Part shown: one piece after another, positions 1,891-51,539 of the stretch
Position numbering within the stretch: the stretch's first letter is position 1
Layout of the letters: each line of letters opens with the position of its first letter
Virus record (IMG/VR): IMGVR_UViG_3300032304_001168
DNA length: 64,000 nt
DNA from: a virus
Reading direction: 5' to 3' (one strand)
Notes under the pieces: model-generated
What the model was told of the DNA's origin: nothing
Seen by the model: only the letters and a program-made list of their open reading frames with translations
Databases searched by the model: none
Translations under genes and position numbers: made by a program

Positions 1891-3721
1891 AAGGGTCTAT
1901 TATTGGTTCTGATGTTATGGTTTGTTCAATATAATTAGTTCCCTCTGGAATTATTCTAAAAATAAAATTATTATAAGGGTAATGAACACCGTTTAAAAAT
2001 GGATAATCAACACCTAATCCACTACTATCAACATATCCATAAGGATATAAATCTCGCCAAATAAATTGGTCATTTGTTGTTGTGAAATATGAATAATTAG
2101 GAATATTTTCAACAATTCTTTTGTCTCCACTTTCAATATAATCCGAAAATACTCTTATTGTCATAGGATGTAATGGATTGTAATAATAACCTCGTTGATT
2201 TGAATTTGTTGTACCCAAAGACTGATTAATATCAAATAAGTTGGGGTTAAATTTTATCTTATGGTAAACACGAGATATGACCCTCTCTTTTTGTTCAAAA
2301 TCATTCCATTCACATAAATCACCATCCAATTCATCCCCCTTTTGTAATGTATCTAAATAGGTAAAATTATATTGATTTCCGTTTACTATTCTTTGATAAT
2401 CTGAAAATGAAAATGTTGTATTTGATAATGAAAAATTATTATCCCACCAATTGTTTGGTGTATTATTATTGTTAACTGATGGAATATTAAAATCCCATCC
2501 TTGTTTCATTGGGTAATAATTATTAGTTTGTGAATCATTGATACCAAATGTCCACCCAAAATATCCTTTCCACATTACAGTGAAAAAAAGTTCAGATATT
2601 GGTCTTTTTTGATTATCTAATAAATTATTAATATCCAAAATATTGTTTACTGTTACAGAATACGCTTGTGAACCTTCCTTAACCGAGATTCTTGATGTTA
2701 AATTTGGGGTTAAATTTGCTGGTTCATATTTTTTGACATTTCTAAATGCTGTTTGTTCGAATCCTGTTTTTGTTACAACAATATCATCAATATTTGTTAA
2801 TATTTTATTTTTTCTTATATAATATTTTGATATTGTATCAGTAACATTATCTTTAAGTAATAATCTTTTAGCAGTTCCTTGTCCACCATCATTAAATGTT
2901 GACCCAGTGAATCCAATATTAACAATATTAAACACATATTCATCACTACCAAAAGTATCGTCACCCAAGGAATAAACTTGATGTATATCAATAATACTAC
3001 TACCAGTATATCTAAAATTAGAACTAACTTGAAAAAATTCACCCACGCTTAATCCGTGTTTAATTGGACTTCTAAACTCAATAATATTTCTACCATTATA
3101 AGTTGAGTTTTTAATCCCAAATGGGATTCCATTACTTACAGTCCAATTTACTGTAGGATAAAGTGGTGTTGGGTCGTTTGGAACTTTAAATGTTGCTTGT
3201 AATTGTTTACTATAGTCATTTTCAAACGCGTAACTTATAAAGAAATTCCAATTATAACTTGATGCACTCTTTGCGACAAAATTAATATGTGGTGGTGTTG
3301 AACCTGATGTTGTTGTATACCCTGATACATTATAATCATTTCTTATAAAATCAAATTCATTATATAATGGAAATCCACCCCAAGGAAAATTTGAATTTGG
3401 ATTACACCTTTGAATTACAGTTTCTTGAGCATTAACATAATATAGATTTTGTTCAAATGGTGGATATGGTGGGTTGCCAATTGTTTGACCACTATAAGCA
3501 TTTTTGAATATTATTGAGAATTTACATGTTGGTCTAAATTTATTTGAGGATTGTCTTTCATCTTGAAATACTTGTTCCAAATTTATATTAGAAGTTCTAT
3601 CATACTCAACTTGTTGTTTTTGTGTTTCTTCTAACCCAAGTTGAATTGATAAATCTGTATTTGGTGACCCCTTATATCTTAAAGAACCTAAAACTATTCT
3701 TGTATCATTAATATTCCCCAT
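1883..3721 (-). CDS. Hypothetical virion/baseplate-associated protein
   Basis: 612-aa N/Y/F-rich ORF abutting its neighbours in the baseplate cluster. Confidence 0.6.
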   Translation of the reverse strand: MGNINDTRIVLGSLRYKGSPNTDLSIQLGLEETQKQQVEYDRTSNINLEQVFQDERQSSNKFRPTCKFSIIFKNAYSGQTIGNPPYPPFEQNLYYVNAQETVIQRCNPNSNFPWGGFPLYNEFDFIRNDYNVSGYTTTSGSTPPHINFVAKSASSYNWNFFISYAFENDYSKQLQATFKVPNDPTPLYPTVNWTVSNGIPFGIKNSTYNGRNIIEFRSPIKHGLSVGEFFQVSSNFRYTGSSIIDIHQVYSLGDDTFGSDEYVFNIVNIGFTGSTFNDGGQGTAKRLLLKDNVTDTISKYYIRKNKILTNIDDIVVTKTGFEQTAFRNVKKYEPANLTPNLTSRISVKEGSQAYSVTVNNILDINNLLDNQKRPISELFFTVMWKGYFGWTFGINDSQTNNYYPMKQGWDFNIPSVNNNNTPNNWWDNNFSLSNTTFSFSDYQRIVNGNQYNFTYLDTLQKGDELDGDLCEWNDFEQKERVISRVYHKIKFNPNLFDINQSLGTTNSNQRGYYYNPLHPMTIRVFSDYIESGDKRIVENIPNYSYFTTTNDQFIWRDLYPYGYVDSSGLGVDYPFLNGVHYPYNNFIFRIIPEGTNYIEQTITSEPIIDPCE

Positions 3722-6700
3722 CTATTCAGTTATGTTTTCAAAATTTATCCATTTTTTTATAAATCTATCCCAAGCTGTTTTTCCTTTTTTTAATCCAAAA
3801 TAAAAATAAAATGGTGAACCTACTGTAATTGTATTATCTGGAGATGAATTACGTTCCCAAGAATTTATATCTGGATTATATTCGTTAGTTGTACTATTAT
3901 AAGAATAGATATAACCTTTATCATCTCTACTATATGTACTAGTATTTCTAAAGTATCTTGAACTAACGTCTAATCTATTCAATGATTGATATTTTTTATA
4001 AAAGAAACTTCCATCATCTATAGTATTCGTGTACCAAGTATTACTTTGATTACCAAAAATATTATCATACTGATTATTATTTTTATTTATTTCCCATTGA
4101 TAGAATGGTACTTCTTGTGAATAAACATAGAAATTGTCAAATGCACAATTATTACTAGGGTCAACCAATTCATTAATAATATTTCGTTTAGGTGATATAA
4201 AATCTCTTGTTTGAGAATCTGATGAGAAAAATATACCAAAAATAGCATTATTACTATTAGTGTCATTGAAATAAATAGGGTCTTGTCCACTAGGTATTGG
4301 TAAATAATTTGATGATTCAAATTCCACAACACCTAATTCTGAACTTATTGATATCATTTGAGCATAATCACCATCAACAAATCCTTTATAATCATCTCTA
4401 CTATCAAAATATTTTGTAACATTAGCTCCACCACCACTTATTAACGATTGAATGAAATTAAGATTTACCAATCGACTAATAATTAATAAATTTAGAATTT
4501 CTGAAACATCTTTATATGTTGTTTCGGATAATCTATCCATAACATATCCATCAAATTCATTTGAGAAAACCAATTCTTGTGTATAATTTGTTTTTGGCCC
4601 TAAATCAATTATTGTTGTTGGAAACTTAAGATTTTTTTTGTTACCTTTATATAATGGATTAAGTGGTGGCGCACCAACAAATCTAGGAGATAAACTAGTA
4701 TTACCTAAAAAGTACGGACTACTTCTATAATAAAAATTATTAGTAGGATGTAAAATTATAGTATCTTTACAATAAACACTTATAGGTTCGTTGTTTATAT
4801 TAAATCGTTTATCATTTTTAAATGAAAACGCATACAATGTTCCATTTATCCAATTATTTGTAAACATATGTGACCATACATTTCTACAAGCAGCAAATGT
4901 TATTTGTAATCTATTAGTCCATTCATTTAATAATTGAAAGTCTTTAACTAGACTCAACACTGGAACTGTTATTAATACATAACAACCATTTTCCATAATT
5001 GGTGTTTGATTTAAACCATTATCATAACACGCATTTGGTGGGGCTATCACATCAATCTCACTATTATTACTTTCATAACAACCTAAAGGAACTAATTTTG
5101 AACAAGAAAAAGTACTTAAAATGGATATTCCAGGAGGTTGGTCATCTAAATTCTGTAATTCACTACTAAATGTTGGTGTTCCCAATTCTGTGGTCGAACT
5201 AGTACCAAATACACCAACACCTGAAGTTTCATCATCACTAACAAAATAAACGGTAAACTTTGGATTTGAGAACAATGGAAAAGTGTTTTCCAAATCTTGT
5301 ATATAAGATGTAGATGTTGGAAGCCTATCTGACCTCATAACAATCCGTCCTGAACTTACCATTGTATTAGTATAATTATAGTTTGAATTATATAACAAAT
5401 AAGATGGTGCATAATAATATGATACACCTTTAGGTCTGTCATCATTTGGATTAAGATTAGGACCCAAATTACATGGATCAATACCATTTAAACATAGTAT
5501 TTGATTCATATAAGAACCACCTTCAACAATTTGGTTAGACCAGTAAGAACGATAAAAAATATTTGGACTTCTATGTTGTATTTTCTCGTCACCATTTAGT
5601 ATCGCTCTTTGTCTTGTAAGTAAATCACCTCCATTAATTCTTCTAAATTCAACTTGAAATGCGTTTTGAAGTTCCTCAGTTGAGAAAGGTGGTGTCACCC
5701 CATTTCCATTTCTAGACCCATAATCTCGATTTAGTTTTAAATAAGGTATTGGGTCTGGAATTGTAGGACTATTATTAGATGTTACATTTAATCCTATAGA
5801 ATTAGTTAAATAATTCCAAGGTGTACTTTTATCTAACAACGAATAATAATTAGGTAATTTAGAATTAAATGGAATAAAACCATTTTGTCCACCTATTGTT
5901 GGTCGATAGTGATAGGATTGGTAATATAAATATTGATTAGTTGTAGGGTCAAAACCATCAGTATTAGGATTGTGTCTTGTGTTTTGTATACCTCCATTAA
6001 TTGGGATGTTTAGTTTATAATTATCACCTCTAATTATAAATTTACCACCATCATAATCGGGATTTATTCCACCTGGATTATAAAATGGGTATACAATATT
6101 ACCTAAAATTCTATTGTATATTACCGAACCTCCTATAATTCCAGATAAATCATATTCAACTTCACCTCTAGTTGAGTATGGGTCAACACCTCTTACTAAA
6201 AATACTAACCCTTGTTCTGCAAAATTATTGAATGCCAAAGCTGGGCTAATTCGATAAGTCCCAACATCTCCATCACTAAAATTATTACGAATAAATTCAT
6301 TTTGATTATTCATCGTAACAATATTAATACGCGTAAATAACGCATGTGTTAATGTTCCTGGAAAATTTCCCCAAAATAATCCTGGGGGTGAATTTAATGA
6401 ATCTTGTTGTAAATCAATGTCATCATATCCATATATGTCACCAATTGTCATTGCTGTTATTACTTGGAAATATTCAATATCCATTGGATATTTAGCATAC
6501 TGAGCATCATCAACACCTTGGTCAATTTGATATGTCGTTGTATTGTTACCACTACCATCAAATCTAGCCCAATCAACATTTATTGAATTATTATTTTGAT
6601 TTATAGTAATTCCAGTTGTTGCATTATTACCGAATTGATTTGTTGTTGAACCTGTTATATTTGGGTCAGTTGATAGCTCAGAAGACTGAAATGTGACTAA

Positions 6701-39676: not shown

Positions 39677-42600
39677 TTAAATATTCTCAAATGATGCGCC
39701 TGTTGGGGTGATATAGAATGTAATATCAATGAATTCTAACGCTTTAGTCGGTTTAATGTAGATACTACCAGTTAATTGATTTCTATCCAAATCAGCTGGG
39801 TCTGAAGAAACTGTTACACGGAAATCGTATAAACCTCTATCTCTTCTAATGGCATCTAAGATTGGATTAACAGCATTTAAGAAATCTTGTCTAACTTTAT
39901 CATCATTTTGTTCAAACAATAATCGTACTGATACTGCAGAAATTAATTTACGTGCTTGTAATAACAATCTTCTAACATTAATTCTATCTAAAGCAGATTC
40001 TCTAATTTGAAGAGTTTTGTTACCCCAAATTACAGTTCCTACATCTGAGAAAGTTGCAATTGGATTAATTCTACCTTTGTATAAGGTATCTCTATCTTCT
40101 TGAGTTAATTTCTTTCTAGCTTTAATTGCGTTTACAATACCACGAGTATAACCTGCCGCAGCAAACCAAGGGAAAGCGATATTATCAGTTAATGCTAAGT
40201 TTTTACATACTTCCGCAGTTGGTGGAATATAGATTTGAGTATTATTAACCGTATCTCTTGTTAATACCCAAGGGTAATAAGTTGCTGTATAGTTTGAATC
40301 TATACCTGCGGTTTCTAGGTTATCAACAGCTTCTTGTGGATAAATCAAATCTAATTGGTCACCAGTTGTTGGTGTAAACATCTTATAGTCAGGTGTTGTT
40401 ACTATATAAATTGAATCCGCTCTATCAAATTCAACCATTTCTATTGCTGCCTCAACAAGATTAGAGTGATTAACATAATCAATACCTGGTGTTACAAATA
40501 CATTTATATTTACAGCTTCAGGATTTGAAAATGTTTGTTGACCTAACAAGTAAGCATAATAGTCAGTATTTCCGTAATCGACACTATTATTACCAACGGT
40601 TATAGTTTTAAACGCACCCCATCCAGTTGCGGAAGGATATCTAAATGAAGGACAAGAACCATTAAGATAACCATTTCTACCCAAGATGAACTTATCTTCA
40701 TTTGTTCTACTTTCTCTATAGATGTCCCAACCATCAAAACCACCTTGACACAATAAAGTAAATTTACGTGCAAACAATCTGTAATATGGATTTGATTCAC
40801 TTGTTGGGTCTGATGTGAAAGTTCCCGAACCAACATAGAATGCTGGAGTTCCACTTGTCGCGAATGAATTACCAATGGTGATACCACTAGCATTTATATC
40901 CATATGGAATCCCTTTGTTTTATATAACCAATTGTCACCACTAGTATCAGTACAAACTGATAAAGGTAGTTGTTTACCTTTGTAAGCGTAAAAATCTAAA
41001 TCATAACCAATTGTATCTGAAATACCTAAATAAGTTCTTCTAACATTATCTCCAGCACTTCTTATTATATCATCAGAACCTGAAGATAAGCCAAAAGGTG
41101 GATTATAAATTACTTCACCAGGAAAATCGTATTTAGTTTTATAGATTGGGAATGGAGGTCTTACACCAGCATATTCTCTGAATTGATATCCTTCAAATCC
41201 ACAAGGCAAGGCATCAACTGGAGCATCTTCATTCATTACTAACATAACAAATTTAGAATTTAATGCGTACTCACCATCCATAGTACCAATTTTCTTAGCA
41301 ATGAAGTTATTTTCATTTGGATTCATTGAACAATTTGTGAACTTCTCAAGTACAACAGGATTGGAATCGTTATCAAAGAAATCTCTAACAAACACATCAA
41401 ACGTTCCATTGTTAAATGATATATTAGAAATCGATAATTTAACTTCATAATTTGCATCATTACCATCAGCAATAGTAACAAACTTGAATAAGTTGAATAC
41501 TTTATTACCTCTTAATTCAGAAACTACCCAAGGTGATTCAGGTGATTGATATTTTTCTAAATACCAAGCAATTGATGTTGGGTCAGTTTGTTGTCTAGCA
41601 TTAGGTAATGCTGTTAAAGAACAATTTAAACCTCTAATATAACCCTTTCTATATCCATATGTTAATAAAGATTGGAATATCTCCTCAACAAATAAAGGAA
41701 CTGTAGTTCTTTGTTTTGAGAAATTAGTTACCCCAAAAACTTTTGATAGATATTTTGGGTCTGAATTTGTAAATGACGTTTCAAAGAAAAACGTTTGATT
41801 ATCTTTATTTGTTACATTTAATCCAAATGTTGTAAAAGGATTTTTAGTGACACCTGAATAAGATCCAGTGCATGTCATACTAACATCAGTTAAACCTGAC
41901 ACTTCATAAACAGCGCCATCGTCAGTGGTATATGTGGCCAAACCTCTTGAACGTAATGTTGCAATAACCAAATCATCATAGTCAGTATAAGATTTACCTG
42001 AATAAACAAATGCTTGTCCTGATACAGTGCCACTATAACAATTTAATGTTGTTCCAGTATTCGGTGTTCCTGTATTACCAGAAGCACATAATCCACAAGG
42101 GTCAAATAGATTTAAGTTTACAGTCCAATTTGTAATGACTGAACCATCTTCAGATGTTACAACATAACTTTTAGTTAGAGCGCTAAAGTTAACATTAGTT
42201 GTTGTTGCAGACTGAGTAACGTTTTCACTTGTTACACCTGTGTCACAAGAACTGAAAGTTATTGTCATAGCAGTTGTATCTGCAGTTGTTGAACCTGAAG
42301 GTAGACAAACATTAATAACGTTTGTATTATAATTAATAGAACCAAAAACTTCACCAATTGTCGCAGCACTTACAGAATAACTAAATATTGTTGCACAATC
42401 AGAGAGTGTAGGTGTTTGAACTATACTATCTACAATATTATAGAATGAATATCCTGTATAATCAGTATTACCTACATTATCAAATGTTGCATAATACCAA
42501 GTATCATTAACCGATGCTGTATAATCAGCCAAATCTGAACTTACGTTGTCAACACCAAATACATTTGTACTTGCAGTATATGCGGATAATGTATCATAGG

Positions 42601-43249
42601 TTCCTCCTGAAATAGTACCAAAATAACTTATTGAAGTTGCTGAAGTTGCTGGAGTATTTAAGACATTAAAAATTTGATTTTGTAAATCAGTGTTTATTGT
42701 TGATGTTGACCCATTAAATAATTCATATGTGCTATTGATATCCGATGATAAGAAATCTGGTAATGTAGTTGTAAATTGTATTGAATCCACATTATTAGTA
42801 CATCCTGTAAAACCGATAGTATAATCAACGATTGTGAACCCAGTACAATCAGTTACACAATTTACTGTTGTAAATCCTGTACATTCAAAACCAACTGTTG
42901 ATTGGTCAACATTAGCCACTGTAACAATAGACCAAGAAGGTCCCGCATCATAACCTGATAACCCAAGAACTCTTGTTACGAATAATTGGTTTGATTGTTG
43001 TAAATATGCTTTAGCGATATATGCCGCTTCATATTTTGGAATTTGTGTGTTAATAAATTTCTCAGGTGAAGTTCCACCAAAGTAAGCTTGAAATTCGTCA
43101 AAGTTTGTAATAAAGATAGGTTCGAAGGCTGGACCTTTAAGAGTTTCACCAACAATACCCAAAGTTGTTACACCAACACTTTGAGAAACAAAGCTTAAAT
43201 CGACCTCGGAAGTATAAACACCAGGAGAAACGAATACTTTATTTGCCAT
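39677..43249 (-). CDS. Contractile tail sheath protein (gp18-like) with large insertions
   Basis: VSPGVYTSEVD N-terminus; PWFAAAG, RINPI, IWGNKT, RINVRRLL, FEQND, KPTKALEFI. Confidence 0.95.
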   Translation of the reverse strand: MANKVFVSPGVYTSEVDLSFVSQSVGVTTLGIVGETLKGPAFEPIFITNFDEFQAYFGGTSPEKFINTQIPKYEAAYIAKAYLQQSNQLFVTRVLGLSGYDAGPSWSIVTVANVDQSTVGFECTGFTTVNCVTDCTGFTIVDYTIGFTGCTNNVDSIQFTTTLPDFLSSDINSTYELFNGSTSTINTDLQNQIFNVLNTPATSATSISYFGTISGGTYDTLSAYTASTNVFGVDNVSSDLADYTASVNDTWYYATFDNVGNTDYTGYSFYNIVDSIVQTPTLSDCATIFSYSVSAATIGEVFGSINYNTNVINVCLPSGSTTADTTAMTITFSSCDTGVTSENVTQSATTTNVNFSALTKSYVVTSEDGSVITNWTVNLNLFDPCGLCASGNTGTPNTGTTLNCYSGTVSGQAFVYSGKSYTDYDDLVIATLRSRGLATYTTDDGAVYEVSGLTDVSMTCTGSYSGVTKNPFTTFGLNVTNKDNQTFFFETSFTNSDPKYLSKVFGVTNFSKQRTTVPLFVEEIFQSLLTYGYRKGYIRGLNCSLTALPNARQQTDPTSIAWYLEKYQSPESPWVVSELRGNKVFNLFKFVTIADGNDANYEVKLSISNISFNNGTFDVFVRDFFDNDSNPVVLEKFTNCSMNPNENNFIAKKIGTMDGEYALNSKFVMLVMNEDAPVDALPCGFEGYQFREYAGVRPPFPIYKTKYDFPGEVIYNPPFGLSSGSDDIIRSAGDNVRRTYLGISDTIGYDLDFYAYKGKQLPLSVCTDTSGDNWLYKTKGFHMDINASGITIGNSFATSGTPAFYVGSGTFTSDPTSESNPYYRLFARKFTLLCQGGFDGWDIYRESRTNEDKFILGRNGYLNGSCPSFRYPSATGWGAFKTITVGNNSVDYGNTDYYAYLLGQQTFSNPEAVNINVFVTPGIDYVNHSNLVEAAIEMVEFDRADSIYIVTTPDYKMFTPTTGDQLDLIYPQEAVDNLETAGIDSNYTATYYPWVLTRDTVNNTQIYIPPTAEVCKNLALTDNIAFPWFAAAGYTRGIVNAIKARKKLTQEDRDTLYKGRINPIATFSDVGTVIWGNKTLQIRESALDRINVRRLLLQARKLISAVSVRLLFEQNDDKVRQDFLNAVNPILDAIRRDRGLYDFRVTVSSDPADLDRNQLTGSIYIKPTKALEFIDITFYITPTGASFENI

Positions 43250-45133: not shown

Positions 45134-47992
45134 TTGAGTTTAACAGGTAAAACATCTAATCTTATTGAATCTAAAGCACTTGATATTTTGGACACATATT
45201 CAGGTGGAAATAACTTTATTTTAAAACTAAAACATTATAAAGAAACCAATAAGAAATTCTATCCCACACGTTCCCAAGCTGAGTACATAATTAACTATCA
45301 TTCAGTTGAACCAAAGATTGCCAAGAAGTGGGTTAACATTGAACCCTATTTTGCAAATAAAATTGCGGATGAAAAAAATATGTTAACAATCCCAACTGAT
45401 ATTTGGGTTGAAAAGTTATTGGTGGATAAAGATAAATCATATCATATTTGGGGCAGATTTAACTCAGGTGACACTTTAACTGATATTTGGTTACCCAAGG
45501 CCGCATTACTAAAAACTCACAACACAGAGGAAGTTAAGATTAATTATTCAAAGTATAACCATAGACCCCCACTTGAACACCAAAAAATTGCAATAGAAAA
45601 ATTGGTTGGTAGTAAACGATTTATTTTAGCAGACGACATGGGACTGGGGAAGACGACCTCAGCAATAATTGCAGCACTTGAAACTAATGAAAAAAAGATT
45701 TTAATCGTTTGTCCTGCTTCACTTAAGTTAAATTGGGAGAGGGAAATTAGGAATTATACTGATAGAAGTGTATTTGTTGTTGATGGTAAAAACTTTTCCA
45801 ATGACCACGATTTTGTAATTGTTAATTATGATATACTTAAAAATTTCCATGACACAAAGAATCATAACGAATCAAAAATATTAAATCAATTTGATGTTAT
45901 ACTTGCTGATGAATGTTTTACCTATGATACATTAGTTAAAACAAACAAAGGTGATTTTAAAATTGGTGAAATCGTTGAAAACAATTTGGATGTTAAAGTA
46001 TTAACATATAATCATACCCACAAAATTATAGAATATAAAAACATATTAAGGAGATTAATTAAAAATACAGACACTATATATGAAATAAAATTACAAAATG
46101 GAGTATTTATAGAGTGTACTAATAACCATAAATTTTTTGTAAAAAATAAAGGATATGTCAGGGCAGACCAACTTTCAACCAACGATTTATTGTTTGAATT
46201 GTCAGAAAATATTAACCAAGAAACAAGTTTGGAAAAAAATACAAACTTGTTCACAAAGTTGTGGTACAACTTATCGTTACAAAATGAACCCCCCAAAGAA
46301 AAAAGAAAAAGAATTAAAATATACAAAAAGTTGTTTAAATTGTGGCAAAATTATGAACTTTTATACCATAAGTCAAATGAAAAAACAGAATTGTTGTTCA
46401 GTGGGTTGCGCATCAAAACTAAATTGGGAAAAAGGGAGTACGAGAGAAAGATACACAGAATCAATGAAAAAACACAATCGGTCTCAAATTATGAAAGACA
46501 TACACAAAAGAAATCCAAATCTTTCCAAAATGTCTTCACAACGTATGAAAGAGAACAACCCAATGAAAAATATAGAATCTGTAGAAAAAATGAGGAAAAA
46601 GTTAACTGGACGAACATTTCTTTCAAGAGGTGGGAACGGAAAATTAACACCACAACAGATATTATTACACCAAATGTTAGGAGACGAATGGATTATGGAA
46701 TTGCCTATACCTACGAGGGAATACAAAGGAACAGAAAAAAGTTTACCATTTTGTTACAAAGTAGACATTGCCCACCCAAAACAAAAAATTATTATAGAAA
46801 TAGATGGAAAATCTCACAAGACAGAAAAATGGAAATTTTTAGACAAACGGAAGACCAATATATTAACTTCGTTGGGGTGGAAAGTATTAAGATTTTGGAA
46901 CGAGGAAGTTGCGGAAACCCCTCAAATTTGTTTACAAAAAATACAAGAGTTTATGACTTAGAAACTGAAGATAATCATAATTATTTCGTTAATGGAATAC
47001 TTGTTAGTAATTGTCATTATGTTAATAATCCTCAGTCCCAAAGAACAAAGTTATTCAATGACTTTGTAAAGAAATCAAAATACCTTTGGTTGTTAACTGG
47101 TACACCAATGACAAATAGACCAATCAATTATTACAATTTATTGAATCTAATTGAAAGTCCTGTGGCTCAAAATTGGATGGCTTATGTCATTCGTTATTGT
47201 CAAGGTTATCAATTTAAGGCTGGGAATAGAAAAGTTTGGAATGTGAATGGGGCATCTAACTTGGAAGAGTTAAGAGATAGAACATCAAGACAAGTGTTGA
47301 GAAGATTAAAAACTGATGTATTAGATTTACCTGAAAAAATTATTACCCCAATCTATTTGAGATTAAAATCAAAACAATATGAAGAATTAATGGGGGAATA
47401 TTATGAGTGGTATAATAAACATCCAGAAGAATCAAAGTCATTAACTGTTCAATTCAACAAACTTATGAAAGTAAGACAAGTTATTGCTGATGAGAAAGTT
47501 CAGGAAACTATTGGTTTGATTGAAAATATATTGGAACAAGGTAAAAAAGTAATTGTATTTACAAACTTTACAGATAGTTTACAAAAAATACATTCCCATT
47601 TTGGAAAACAATCAGTTTATTTGGATGGAACTTGTAGTAAAGCTCAAAGACAATATTCGGTTGACCAATTCCAAGAAAACGATAAAATAAAAGTATTCGT
47701 TGGGAATATTCAAGCTGCAGGTGTTGGTATTACATTAACTGCGGGTGAGGTTGTATTGTTTAATGACTTATCTTTTGTTCCCGCACATCACCAACAAGCG
47801 GAAGATAGAGCATATCGTTATGGTCAAAAAAATTGTGTTTCAGTTTATTATCCCATATTTGAAAACACAATCGAAGGTGTTATCTATGATATGTTAATTA
47901 ATAAAAAGAATATCATTGATACTGTAATGGGGGACAATTTGGATAAGGCCGAATTCATTGAGCAAATTATGAATAGGATTAATAATATTTAA
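45134..47992 (+). CDS. SNF2-family (HARP/SMARCAL1-like) helicase containing an intein; about 586 aa after splicing
   Basis: LADDMGLGKT, VCPASLK, DE[intein]CH, LTGTP, LRRLKTDV, AGVGITLT, QAEDRAYRYGQ. Confidence 0.93.
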   Translation: MSLTGKTSNLIESKALDILDTYSGGNNFILKLKHYKETNKKFYPTRSQAEYIINYHSVEPKIAKKWVNIEPYFANKIADEKNMLTIPTDIWVEKLLVDKDKSYHIWGRFNSGDTLTDIWLPKAALLKTHNTEEVKINYSKYNHRPPLEHQKIAIEKLVGSKRFILADDMGLGKTTSAIIAALETNEKKILIVCPASLKLNWEREIRNYTDRSVFVVDGKNFSNDHDFVIVNYDILKNFHDTKNHNESKILNQFDVILADECFTYDTLVKTNKGDFKIGEIVENNLDVKVLTYNHTHKIIEYKNILRRLIKNTDTIYEIKLQNGVFIECTNNHKFFVKNKGYVRADQLSTNDLLFELSENINQETSLEKNTNLFTKLWYNLSLQNEPPKEKRKRIKIYKKLFKLWQNYELLYHKSNEKTELLFSGLRIKTKLGKREYERKIHRINEKTQSVSNYERHTQKKSKSFQNVFTTYEREQPNEKYRICRKNEEKVNWTNISFKRWERKINTTTDIITPNVRRRMDYGIAYTYEGIQRNRKKFTILLQSRHCPPKTKNYYRNRWKISQDRKMEIFRQTEDQYINFVGVESIKILERGSCGNPSNLFTKNTRVYDLETEDNHNYFVNGILVSNCHYVNNPQSQRTKLFNDFVKKSKYLWLLTGTPMTNRPINYYNLLNLIESPVAQNWMAYVIRYCQGYQFKAGNRKVWNVNGASNLEELRDRTSRQVLRRLKTDVLDLPEKIITPIYLRLKSKQYEELMGEYYEWYNKHPEESKSLTVQFNKLMKVRQVIADEKVQETIGLIENILEQGKKVIVFTNFTDSLQKIHSHFGKQSVYLDGTCSKAQRQYSVDQFQENDKIKVFVGNIQAAGVGITLTAGEVVLFNDLSFVPAHHQQAEDRAYRYGQKNCVSVYYPIFENTIEGVIYDMLINKKNIIDTVMGDNLDKAEFIEQIMNRINNI
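46104..46111 (+). promoter_or_regulatory. Putative late promoter motif TATTTATA inside the intein
   Basis: Same motif found before most structural genes; about 43 nt upstream of the overlapping endonuclease ATG. Confidence 0.45.
46155..46961 (+). CDS. Vsr/DUF559-family homing endonuclease overprinted in the +1 frame of the intein
   Basis: Two CxxC...CxxxC Zn-finger units, NUMOD3-like MKENNPMKNIESVEKMRKKLTG, and KVDIA...IIIEIDGKSH...DKRKTNILTSLGWKVLRFWNEEV. Confidence 0.9.
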   Translation: MSGQTNFQPTIYCLNCQKILTKKQVWKKIQTCSQSCGTTYRYKMNPPKKKEKELKYTKSCLNCGKIMNFYTISQMKKQNCCSVGCASKLNWEKGSTRERYTESMKKHNRSQIMKDIHKRNPNLSKMSSQRMKENNPMKNIESVEKMRKKLTGRTFLSRGGNGKLTPQQILLHQMLGDEWIMELPIPTREYKGTEKSLPFCYKVDIAHPKQKIIIEIDGKSHKTEKWKFLDKRKTNILTSLGWKVLRFWNEEVAETPQICLQKIQEFMT

Positions 47993-48821: not shown

Positions 48822-51539
48822 ATGGAAAAGAAATTAGAACTATTAAAAGAAACTATATTATTAGGTGAGAGTTTAATAACTGAAGCTAAAAAAATTGGTA
48901 TTGATAAATTACCTTATGGTTATGACTCATTAACCAGATTCATTGATGTAAAAACAATGAATGTTCATTATAACAACCACTATAAAGGATATGTTAAGAA
49001 ACTTAACGATGCCTTATCAAAAAAGAATTATGGTAATGTTGAATTGGAAGATATTATCAAATCAATTACAAGATATCCAAAAGTAATTAGAAATAATGGT
49101 GGTGGTGCTTACAACCATTCATTATTTTGGAAAATGTTATCCCCTGAGAAACAAACAATCAAAGGAGAAATATTAACCAAAATTAATAAAGAATTTGGGT
49201 CTTACAAAGAATTTAAGAAGAAATTTGAAGAAGAATCTATTGGAAGATTTGGGTCAGGTTGGGCTTGGTTGGTATTAACCAAAAACAATAGATTAAAAAT
49301 TATGACAACACCAAATCAAGACAATCCCCAAATGAATGACATTGATGGTGGTTATCCTTTATTGGGTTTGGATTTGTGGGAACACGCATATTATTTGAAA
49401 TATCAAAGCAAGAGAGATGAATACATTAAAAGATTTTGGGATGTTGTGAATTGGGAATTCGTTAATGATGTTTATTTATCAAAACTAAAAACAAAATTAA
49501 AGGAATCTATAAAATCTAATAAAGTTATTACTGAAGAAGGTTCATACAAAAATTTCAAATACAACCCAGTAAAAGATTTTGGTAAGGTTACTGAATTTAT
49601 TAAGGAAAATGGTAGAATTAATCCAAAGGTATTTGATGTGATGTTACCTAAAGTATATCCAAAATGTTCACCTGAAATTATTAATGACTATAATAAAGAC
49701 ACACATATAACAGAACCTTGTTTTGGAAAAATTAAAACCAATGATTGTGAAACAAACTATGGTGTAATAGGCGGTAAATATGCTGTAAGTCAAAGAGGTG
49801 GAATTGGTGAATGGTCAGTTATAAATTGGTTTGATGCTAATACCAAAGTTAGTGATAAAATATTAGAATATTTTGAAAAATACAATAAGGAGGGATTAGA
49901 TTTTATTAGTTGGTTTTTTAAATTAAAAAAAACATTACTAAGTGATGATGGTAAATTTACTGGTGAATTAGCTGATTTTATAATGAATCCCCAAACTAAA
50001 AAGGGTACTTTAGATTATGGTTCATCTCGTGAAAGTTTGGCTATTGAAATCTTGAATAAAGAATATGGTAACTCAAATATTACTAGATTTTGTGATGGTG
50101 ATGTTAGAGACAAATATAAAGGTCAAGATATGAAATTAACAAGGGAGTATATCTCAGAATATATTCAAGTTAAACCAACAAGAGATTTATATGAAACTAA
50201 TATTGATGGTCAAGTAAAATATGTTTTCAAAAGTAAAAATAAATATACACCTAATAATATTAATATATTTGCATTTATTGATAATATTAAAAACTATGTA
50301 TTTTTTGATTTTAAAAATGTTGAGGTGAAAGATGATGGGGGACAATCCAAAGAAAGATATTCTTATATTTTCAAATCTGAAAATATTAAATTTAAATCGG
50401 ATAGACTATACCTGTCAAAAATTAATTTAACTGAATCTATAACAAAAAGGGAATTATTAAATGAAGCTAAATCTGATTTTCCAAATTTTAGAACTATGCG
50501 TAGTATAATTCAAAGTGTTTATGATAAATGTGATAGTAATAATCCAATTGATGGTTGGGTTAATGGTTGTAAAGGTGATTTAAATATACCAGAATGTGGT
50601 CCAACTAATATTGGTATTATTGGAGGTAAATATACTGAAGAAAAATATGGTGGAAAAGGTAATTGGTCATTAGTAAATAGATGGGATGCGAATGGTAATG
50701 TTCATAGCGAAATAGAAAAAATATATAAAGAAGAAGCTGAAAAATTTAAAACAGAAAAAAAAGTAAAATATCTCATATCATTGAGAGAATGGATTAATGA
50801 AAATAGAGTTGAATTATTTTCAAATGATGGAGAATGGATTGATAGATTGGCAAAAGTCTCTATTGAAAACTTTAAACAAGGTTTAAAAAATGAAGAATAT
50901 GGTAGAGATATGATTAATTTAGCCTTTGGTTTAGATAAATATAAACAAGATATTGAATATAAAATTAATTTTAATTGTGGGGGTTCAAAAGCGGATACCA
51001 TAAAAGGACAAGACATTGTTTTACAATTTGAAAATGAAGAACCAATACACTTCCAAATAAAATCTATGAAAGAAGGGTATGTTAAACTTTTTAATTCTGA
51101 TAGGGGTAAGTATTATAGGGTGGCATCTTGGCATGAACACACAAAATATAAAGAAGATAATGTTGATTTAATAGTTTATGTTAATCAAGAAAATAAAGAA
51201 TATATCATTTTTGATAATGATTTTTCAAAAATAATAACAACACCAAATTCTAATTATAAAAGAAATAATCTTGAAGGTGATATAAATATACCTAAATACA
51301 TTTATTATTATGAAGAACCTTTTAATACTAATATGACTAATATAGAGTTAATAGCTCCACAATTAAAAGCTAAGGTAAATCCAAGGTTAGAAAAAGATAA
51401 AGACCAATTAATTAAACAATACCAAGAAAGAATATCTTATTATAAAAACAAATTAAAAGAATTGGGAATAAATGATGAAAATATTTCTGAAGCTATTAGG
51501 TTTTATAAAAATAAAATAAATAAACTACTTTATAGTTAA
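48822..51539 (+). CDS. sodA: Mn/Fe superoxide dismutase fused to two tandem PD-(D/E)XK-like domains
   Basis: HYNNHYKGY, NNGGGAYNHSLFW, FGSGWAWL, NQD and DLWEHAYY in the N-terminal quarter (GGG plus NQD indicates Mn type); duplicated C-terminal domain. Confidence 0.85.
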   Translation: MEKKLELLKETILLGESLITEAKKIGIDKLPYGYDSLTRFIDVKTMNVHYNNHYKGYVKKLNDALSKKNYGNVELEDIIKSITRYPKVIRNNGGGAYNHSLFWKMLSPEKQTIKGEILTKINKEFGSYKEFKKKFEEESIGRFGSGWAWLVLTKNNRLKIMTTPNQDNPQMNDIDGGYPLLGLDLWEHAYYLKYQSKRDEYIKRFWDVVNWEFVNDVYLSKLKTKLKESIKSNKVITEEGSYKNFKYNPVKDFGKVTEFIKENGRINPKVFDVMLPKVYPKCSPEIINDYNKDTHITEPCFGKIKTNDCETNYGVIGGKYAVSQRGGIGEWSVINWFDANTKVSDKILEYFEKYNKEGLDFISWFFKLKKTLLSDDGKFTGELADFIMNPQTKKGTLDYGSSRESLAIEILNKEYGNSNITRFCDGDVRDKYKGQDMKLTREYISEYIQVKPTRDLYETNIDGQVKYVFKSKNKYTPNNINIFAFIDNIKNYVFFDFKNVEVKDDGGQSKERYSYIFKSENIKFKSDRLYLSKINLTESITKRELLNEAKSDFPNFRTMRSIIQSVYDKCDSNNPIDGWVNGCKGDLNIPECGPTNIGIIGGKYTEEKYGGKGNWSLVNRWDANGNVHSEIEKIYKEEAEKFKTEKKVKYLISLREWINENRVELFSNDGEWIDRLAKVSIENFKQGLKNEEYGRDMINLAFGLDKYKQDIEYKINFNCGGSKADTIKGQDIVLQFENEEPIHFQIKSMKEGYVKLFNSDRGKYYRVASWHEHTKYKEDNVDLIVYVNQENKEYIIFDNDFSKIITTPNSNYKRNNLEGDINIPKYIYYYEEPFNTNMTNIELIAPQLKAKVNPRLEKDKDQLIKQYQERISYYKNKLKELGINDENISEAIRFYKNKINKLLYS

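Follow-up and report, generated by a model that had tools for sequence, protein, structure and literature searches.

The window analysed here, the whole 64,000-nucleotide (nt) stretch of IMG/VR virus record IMGVR_UViG_3300032304_001168, carries a gene for an SNF2-type helicase that is interrupted in motif II, at D-E/C-H (the slash marks the junction, here and below). By sequence and predicted fold, the inserted element is a class-1 intein with a Hint fold. The middle of this intein is also open in the +1 frame, whose product is, as judged by profile and modelled fold, a Vsr-like (DUF559) nuclease. Very probably the whole is a mobile class-1 intein whose homing endonuclease is a separate gene for 268 amino acids (aa), overprinted in the +1 frame on the middle of the intein. 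The features of the locus are given below, with the frame of the helicase open reading frame (ORF) as frame 0; structural assignments refer to AlphaFold2 (AF2) models.

45134..47992, + strand: helicase precursor ORF, SNF2-type, 952 aa including the intein (Pfam SNF2-rel_dom, ResIII, Helicase_C)
45134..45913, + strand: N-extein, its last residues being A-D-E of motif II
45554..47071, + strand: approximate co-conversion tract, ~360 nt of N-extein and ~60 nt of C-extein, as placed by a drop in identity
45914..47011, + strand: class-1 intein of 366 codons that begins with Cys1 and ends with Asn (V-S-N)
45914..46210, + strand: predicted N-terminal Hint lobe, intein codons 1-99, blocks A/B/N4 (AF2, Foldseek, frame-0 conservation above that of +1)
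46155..46961, + strand: putative homing endonuclease ORF, +1 frame, 268 aa (DUF559, alignment of 27 homologues, AF2 model)
46155..46157, + strand: endonuclease ATG, formed by the frame-0 codons G-Y-V (GGA TAT GTC), which are conserved Hint residues
46155..46210, + strand: dual-coding segment 1, endonuclease N-terminus over the end of the N-terminal Hint lobe
46211..46861, + strand: frame-0 linker, intein codons 100-316, stop-free, K/R/E/N-rich and predicted to be disordered (AF2, conservation, substitutions)
46862..46961, + strand: dual-coding segment 2, the most conserved nuclease motif (L-G-W-K-V-L-R-F-W-N) over the Hint strand V-G-V-E-S-I-K-I-L-E and the start of block F
46862..47011, + strand: predicted C-terminal Hint lobe, intein codons 317-366, blocks F and G
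47012..47992, + strand: C-extein, its first residues being C-H-Y-V-N-N

The helicase ORF matches phrog_62 (DNA helicase) with an E value of 5e-100, and the Pfam Intein_splicing family (PF14890) matches it in a split fashion across aa 274-626. With the intein alone as query, PF14890 scores 63.6 bits (cut-off 35.8, E 2.5e-17) and covers both ends of the 366 aa. Cys1, the block B residues T69-N-N-H72, the terminal Asn366 and a Cys at position +1 are all present; across 35 relatives C1, H72 and N366 are invariant and T69 is nearly so. As the intein is flanked by A-D-E and C-H-Y-V, splicing would rebuild the DE-CH box of motif II. In the AF2 model of the intein, made from a 35-sequence alignment, residues 1-99 form beta strands with a predicted local distance difference test score (pLDDT) >90, residues 100-316 have hardly any secondary structure and a pLDDT of ~40-50, and confidence rises again in the strand 317-329 (pLDDT 89) and in residues 345-366 (80-93). 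Taken as a whole, the two lobes (1-99 and 317-366) score 80-95 and the middle ~43. A Foldseek search with this model gave 67 matches at E<=0.001, led by the DnaX, NrdJ-1, DnaE and DnaB inteins; the best matches, with a probability of 1.00, are mini and split inteins. According to the model, the two ends of the intein frame together make up a complete Hint fold, and the linker between them is disordered.

The +1 ORF begins with the ATG at 46155, four codons downstream of a TAA in its own frame, and its predicted product starts with Met-Ser-Gly-Gln; its TAG falls within the frame-0 codons Y-D-L-E of block F. The protein contains two Cys4-type zinc fingers (aa 13-36 and 60-85), a helical region with the sequences R-M-K-x-N-N-P-M and G-R-T-F-L-S-R-G-G-N-G, and a Vsr-like/DUF559 nuclease at aa ~175-268. 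The Pfam match to DUF559 covers aa 201-267 with an E value of 4.4e-15, and profile matches were obtained to 3hrl (DUF559, 4e-12) and 3r3p (I-Bth0305I, 0.04). The AF2 model of the protein has a mean pLDDT of 83, and its best Foldseek match is 3r3p, 3hrl and 1vsr (Vsr) being the others at the top, with probabilities of 0.92-1.0. Over 27 homologues 32 columns are invariant, including the zinc-finger cysteines, G-G-N, and D204, E215, D217, H221 and D230; in a sequence alignment, as opposed to a superposition, these last five lie in the stretch aligned to the active-site region of I-Bth0305I.

A first-pass annotation, made from the letters of the window alone, had described an intein with splicing blocks at DE/CH, overlapped by a complete 268-aa +1 protein with its own ATG, a stop in block F, two zinc fingers and a Vsr/DUF559 nuclease. 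The PF14890 match, the splicing residues and the modelled Hint lobes bear out the first element of that description, the coordinates 46155-46961 the second, and the DUF559 and 3hrl matches together with the invariant zinc-finger cysteines the last. The check by hidden Markov models that it had proposed for both frames places PF14890 in frame 0 and DUF559 in +1. A NUMOD3-like segment, which it had also listed, was not recovered: no NUMOD-type Pfam family matches the +1 protein at E<=1, though R-M-K-x-N-N-P-M is conserved among the homologues.

Constraint on the two overlapping frames

With the endonuclease in the +1 frame, frame 0 can acquire a stop only where an endonuclease codon with T as its last letter precedes one that begins with AA, AG or GA, and the boundary before a codon of the latter kind is referred to here as a vulnerable junction. 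None of the 92 vulnerable junctions in the window follows a codon ending in T, the use of T at third positions elsewhere being 0.37 (analytic P ~4e-19). When the +1 ORF was shuffled among synonymous codons in 2000 trials, frame 0 acquired a mean of 13.4 stops and never fewer than 5, against none observed. The third frame contains 26 stops over the overlap, as the shuffles predict, and the helicase frame contains none. The same holds for 61 distinct overprinted ORFs taken together, with no stop at 5508 vulnerable junctions where ~1639 were expected, and 1718 stops in the third frame. Two free-standing homologues serve as natural controls; the corresponding frame contains 18 stops in L011 and 22 in L013, in line with their shuffles.

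The pattern of substitutions, obtained from gapless comparisons inside the clade of the window, also changes over the overlap. Between the window and L014, substitutions at frame-0 codon positions 1, 2 and 3 number 20, 10 and 9 in the overlap and 1, 1 and 21 in the C-terminal end of the intein and the C-extein; between L005 and L008 they number 46, 18 and 23 in the overlap and 18, 8 and 45 in the N-extein. The exteins and the non-overlapped intein thus show the usual third-position variation, whereas the overlap has its peak at frame-0 position 1, which is position 3 of the endonuclease codons. Amino-acid divergence over the overlap is higher in frame 0 than in +1. Among 12 relatives, frame 0 is the better conserved at intein codons 1-80 and 341-366 and +1 at codons 91-340, with conservation in both over codons 321-330 (0.76 and 0.91). 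On these sequence comparisons, purifying selection is acting on the nuclease frame within the overlap.

The central region of the intein had been read by the first-pass annotation as off-frame translation, with selection keeping both frames open. The predicted disorder and the higher conservation of +1 throughout this region agree with the first point. The second is upheld by the stop avoidance in the window and in the 61 ORFs, by the substitution periodicity and by the way in which conservation switches frame over the overlap. The locus is a natural case of long dual coding, over ~268 codons, with structured protein in both frames at its two ends.

Distribution, hosts and mobility

Relatives were collected from IMG/VR as the 80 best matches to an endonuclease profile, an alignment built around the protein of the window; a scan with a pattern from the single protein recovered no relative in IMG/VR, whereas the alignment-based scan did. 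In 74 of these 80 loci the host frame, relative to which the endonuclease is again +1, is open across the entire endonuclease, in ORFs of ~640 to >2200 codons. Two of the remaining loci are cut by contig ends and four are not read through, and the other alternative frame is never open in the 80. The metagenomic relatives of the window's phage lineage, with endonucleases 62-93% identical, have the same arrangement. Among deposited phage genomes, tblastn with the endonuclease gave 40 matches, and all those listed sit inside annotated helicase or equivalent genes of Vibrio or Pseudomonas phages; a blastn search of the phage collection with the helicase gene gave no match. In Vibrio phages K391, 1.194.O and 159E43-1b and in Pseudomonas phage MR14, the helicase ORF is uninterrupted, the intein sits at Q-D-E/C-H-H and the endonuclease is in +1. 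The overprint in +1 is therefore a stable and widespread architecture, always in the same frame, and not a fleeting intermediate.

Both junctions could be located in 55 distinct members. The majority have the intein at D-E/C-H, and a minority two residues later, at D-E-A-H/C or D-E-A-H/S. This second register, observed in L043, L062, L071, L087, L091 and others, sometimes with Ser as the +1 nucleophile, suggests that the unit has shifted its target within the same motif. Judged by the extein sequences, the hosts are SNF2-type helicases, DEAD/ResIII-type helicases, very large helicase-containing ORFs and clamp-loader-like AAA+ proteins, the last with L-L-D-E/C-H … L-E-x-P-P. The unit has therefore moved between the Walker-B/motif II sites of different P-loop NTPases, with its internal frame relation unchanged.

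Gene callers treat such loci inconsistently. In L005, L008 and the annotations of L001-L004, some called only the endonuclease and left the helicase uncalled or fragmented; other annotations contain only the helicase, the endonuclease being missed ('coil containing protein'). With the two-frame layout, annotation pipelines miss the endonuclease or break the helicase. In L009 (204-1921), a near relative of the window's intein, one indel (insertion or deletion) in the middle of the overlap breaks both frames, which points to an error in the sequencing of this 2-kb contig or to a dead copy. It was considered as an in-frame fusion of N-intein and endonuclease and rejected, since the single indel explains the apparent fusion ORF. 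L044 and L035 are near-identical but differ close to the end of the endonuclease (near 3700-3770): in L044 a stop closes the host frame 5 nt past the endonuclease ORF, which cuts off the C-terminal intein lobe and the C-extein, and in L035 the host frame is intact with 1369 codons.

The intein-endonuclease element looks mobile from its distribution among alleles. Of the 80 IMG/VR helicases closest to the C-extein of the window (76-98% identity), 79 lack an intein and have a contiguous I-I-D-E-A-H-Y, and one has the intein. Compared with its nearest intein-less relatives (L095 and L099), the nucleotide identity of the window is 95-100% far out and 55-83% from about -360 to +60 nt around the junction; in the immediate flanks (-60 to +60 nt) it resembles the intein-bearing L019 more than these two. 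Such a drop in identity around the junction is the pattern expected of double-strand-break repair with co-converted flanks. In cultured Vibrio phages, intein-bearing and intein-less alleles that are ~92% identical coexist, and the intein-less helicase of Vibrio phage 141O35-1 (Q-D-E-C-H-H-V-L-R-D-N-K-W) is exactly the product predicted for splicing in K391. Laboratory systems for its study are thus available among cultured Vibrio phages, where K391 and the 1.194.O group have the intein and 141O35-1 lacks it.

Elsewhere in the window, a 905-aa ORF (48822-51539, + strand) resembles at its start, on visual inspection, an Fe/Mn superoxide dismutase; the rest is a long extension of two similar halves. 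In L005-L008 the superoxide dismutase (Sod_Fe_N/Sod_Fe_C) has a gene to itself, of ~238-239 aa, and a T4 gp13-like gene comes after it. A structural protein of 1190 aa (39677-43249, - strand) has a long Thr/Ser/Asn-rich insertion, and its homologue in L008 has a weak Phage_sheath_1C match.

Expression of the endonuclease and alternative explanations

For splicing, internal initiation and cleavage specificity we infer the following course. The helicase mRNA would be read in frame 0 as a single chain, in which the N-terminal (~99 aa) and C-terminal (~50 aa) Hint lobes would fold together across the ~217-aa disordered linker, which is no more than a shadow of the nuclease frame, free of stops. 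Self-excision of the intein would then restore the DE-CH motif. Ribosomes starting at the internal ATG at 46155 would make the Vsr-like/EDxHD-type endonuclease with its two zinc fingers, which would cut intein-less helicase alleles (…I-D-E-A-H-Y…) during co-infection, and repair would copy the intein together with some flanking extein. Frame 0 would be kept free of stops by selection on an essential helicase, and +1 would be kept intact by selection for homing.

Several observations weigh against this reading. The penultimate residue of the intein in the window's clade is Ser, where His is usual. The Foldseek E values for the nuclease are weak (0.01-0.07, with no match of the endonuclease model at E<=0.001), although the ranking agrees with that of the sequence profile. 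An AGGA lies 1 nt before the internal ATG, too close for a canonical Shine-Dalgarno sequence. Finally, it is not rare for positions 1 and 2 of the endonuclease codons to be substituted; the nuclease is thus moderately constrained, and some of that constraint could stem from the overlap itself.

Homing endonucleases commonly decay after fixation, as the homing-cycle model describes, and the +1 ORF could be a silent relic in what is effectively a mini-intein whose long linker is junk, with recency as the only reason why the nuclease ORF is still open. We consider this improbable, as the +1 frame is open in all 61 distinct ORFs, which differ by up to ~65% in protein sequence. Recency would also have to account for the 32 invariant columns, with their catalytic acidic and His residues, for the gathering of substitutions at third codon positions of the +1 frame and for its better conservation than frame 0 across the overlap. 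Moreover, the absence of the intein from 79 of the 80 closest helicases and the co-conversion tract mark a recent invasion.

Alternatively, the frame-0 linker might be functional itself, for instance as a regulated spacer that makes splicing conditional, in which case both frames would be functional throughout. Conditional splicing is known in other inteins, and all members retain a linker of ~200-290 residues. Against this, the linker is predicted to be disordered and is less conserved than +1 everywhere in the middle of the intein; its few near-invariant residues (such as R295 in the R-x-R-W patch) can be traced to nuclease motifs such as E-I-D-G, whose shadow they are, and the same stretch has decayed to 15-35 stops in fractured relatives. 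A function of the linker in its own right is thus improbable.

The nuclease could also arise without a start of its own, if programmed +1 ribosomal frameshifting fused it to the N-extein and the N-terminal intein lobe. An A-rich run (A-AAA-AAT-AAA) just 5' of the ATG and a +1 frame that is open for up to 39 codons before the first ATG in some relatives speak for such a mechanism, but no slippery motif is conserved across the clades. In every distinct locus examined except L054 there is an ATG ahead of the first CxxC, and stops in the +1 frame are often found 0-4 codons 5' of the ATG, namely four codons in the window's clade and 0-3 codons in several relatives; independent initiation is favoured over a frameshift fusion for these reasons. 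The formation of the ATG by the G-Y-V codons recurs in several other clades, the start being slightly further 3' in others, and the sequence 5' of the internal ATG differs between clades. In addition, fractured and free-standing relatives make the same protein from its own start, and we regard frameshifting as very unlikely.

Compensating frameshift errors, which the first-pass annotation had raised, were looked for in contigs from four runs of four other studies. These contain only substitutions and no indel over 45800-47100 (one contig spans 45800-46995 with 36 substitutions and no gap), so such errors are ruled out. An assembly or sequencing artefact, in which two homopolymer errors mask an ordinary in-frame endonuclease domain, is hardly conceivable: the overlap is A-rich with many homopolymer runs and the short metagenomic contig L009 does have a single frame-shifting indel, but the same frame relation is found in >60 distinct sequences with GC contents between 26% and 65%, finished cultured-phage genomes among them, and no small pair of shifts would yield an in-frame domain from an ORF with a +1 stop four codons before its ATG and an end within block F.

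Known systems and related architectures

The concept of an out-of-frame intein endonuclease is already published. Out-of-frame or antisense endonucleases in inteins were reportedly first noted in Gorbalenya 1998, as cited in recent preprints (Gosselin, Arsenault & Gogarten, bioRxiv 10.1101/2025.01.02.630785; Phillips, DeSimone & Gogarten, bioRxiv 10.64898/2026.09.14.751524). In these, actinophage inteins have antisense LAGLIDADG, antisense VSR-like and frame-3 endonuclease VII-like enzymes, and a cyanobacterial dnaX intein has a LAGLIDADG enzyme in +2, with the same frame-specific pattern of selection. These non-canonical inteins, described as rare and hosted by actinophage polymerase, capsid, terminase and thymidylate synthase genes and by cyanobacterial dnaX, were proposed to originate from the invasion of a mini-intein by a free-standing endonuclease. 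The intein of the window resembles them in its full splicing domain, a middle that is stop-free in the extein frame and an endonuclease in another frame or strand. Unlike them, its family has a VSR-like/EDxHD-type enzyme on the same strand in +1, sits at Walker-B/motif II (DE/CH) of several P-loop NTPase families and comprises >60 distinct sequences with an invariant frame relation.

The fractured genes of Dassa et al. 2009 (PMC2677866) likewise have a Vsr-like enzyme on the same strand between the intein lobes, with its 3' end overlapping the start of the C-terminal intein part. In the window, however, the host frame is stop-free (955 codons) and encodes one polypeptide with a predicted cis-splicing intein, and there is no non-coding spacer before the endonuclease. 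I-Bth0305I (2011, PMC3239194; PDB 3r3p) is similar in having a C-terminal Vsr-like nuclease and in belonging to a mobile intervening sequence of a phage, in that case a recA group I intron. Its N-terminal DNA-binding region has NUMOD-like motifs, where the window protein has R-M-K-x-N-N-P-M; the latter differs further by its two N-terminal zinc fingers and is nearer to DUF559 (3hrl). In phage methylases with the ShiLan element (PMC11855218), too, an insertion without stops in the host frame conceals an endonuclease ORF that is read in a different frame, and active homing is reported; the enzyme there is described as of the HNH type, and the insertion is not recognisable as an intein. A full-text literature search found no description of a same-strand +1 VSR-like overprint or of this Walker-B intein family, of the breadth of the family and its invariant frame relation, of a coding overlap reaching into Hint structural elements, or of all four architectures for one endonuclease family.

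These four architectures, free-standing, fractured, overprinted in +1 and in-frame, occur in related sequences, and the overprinted one is by far the commonest in the IMG/VR sample. In the fractured loci L088 and L092/93, one ORF encodes the N-extein and N-intein, the endonuclease follows in +1, and the C-intein and C-extein form an ORF again in frame 0; the middles have 15 (L088) and 35 (L092/93) frame-0 stops and the overlaps at both ends are kept. In L079 (81-2324 and 2458-3405) a free-standing copy of the endonuclease lies directly 3' of an SNF2 helicase without an intein in motif II. The motif II of that helicase reads I-I-D-E-A-Q, and its P-loop appears to contain another intein (C-F-S-A-D-T … S-G-N/T-G-K-S). 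The free-standing homologues L011 and L013 lie in bacterial contexts. The only in-frame relative found is P0097 (Logan contig, 819 aa, UvrD-like), in which, barring an assembly error, an in-frame DUF559 without zinc fingers lies in an intein at D-E/C.

In an unrooted tree of the endonucleases, which is poorly resolved in its deep part (27 of 72 branches open), the fractured and free-standing forms are scattered among the overprinted ones, with three changes of architecture against a shuffled mean of 5.0. The sequences are compatible with the overprinted state being ancestral within the sample. The first-pass annotation had suggested that the layout could be an intermediate between contiguous and fractured inteins. 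The link between the two holds, in that L088 and L092/93 have the same frame relation as the window; the intermediate as a fleeting state does not, given the 74 of 80 loci that are overprinted.

A more tentative proposal, which we find possible but would not favour, is that the overprint is an adaptive 'entanglement' and not an accident of insertion, the fractured, free-standing and in-frame forms being derived side branches. With the endonuclease enclosed in the frame of an essential helicase, a frameshift or out-of-frame deletion that starts its decay would kill the phage. If this is true, a selfish gene would be shielded from the degeneration of the homing cycle, which would explain the dominance of +1 among the phage members of this endonuclease family, and naturally split inteins would have a concrete path of descent from a cis-splicing one. 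The acquisition of endonucleases by inteins and the origin of split inteins have so far been argued from few rare cases; with four architectures in one endonuclease family, the order of events becomes testable by phylogeny.

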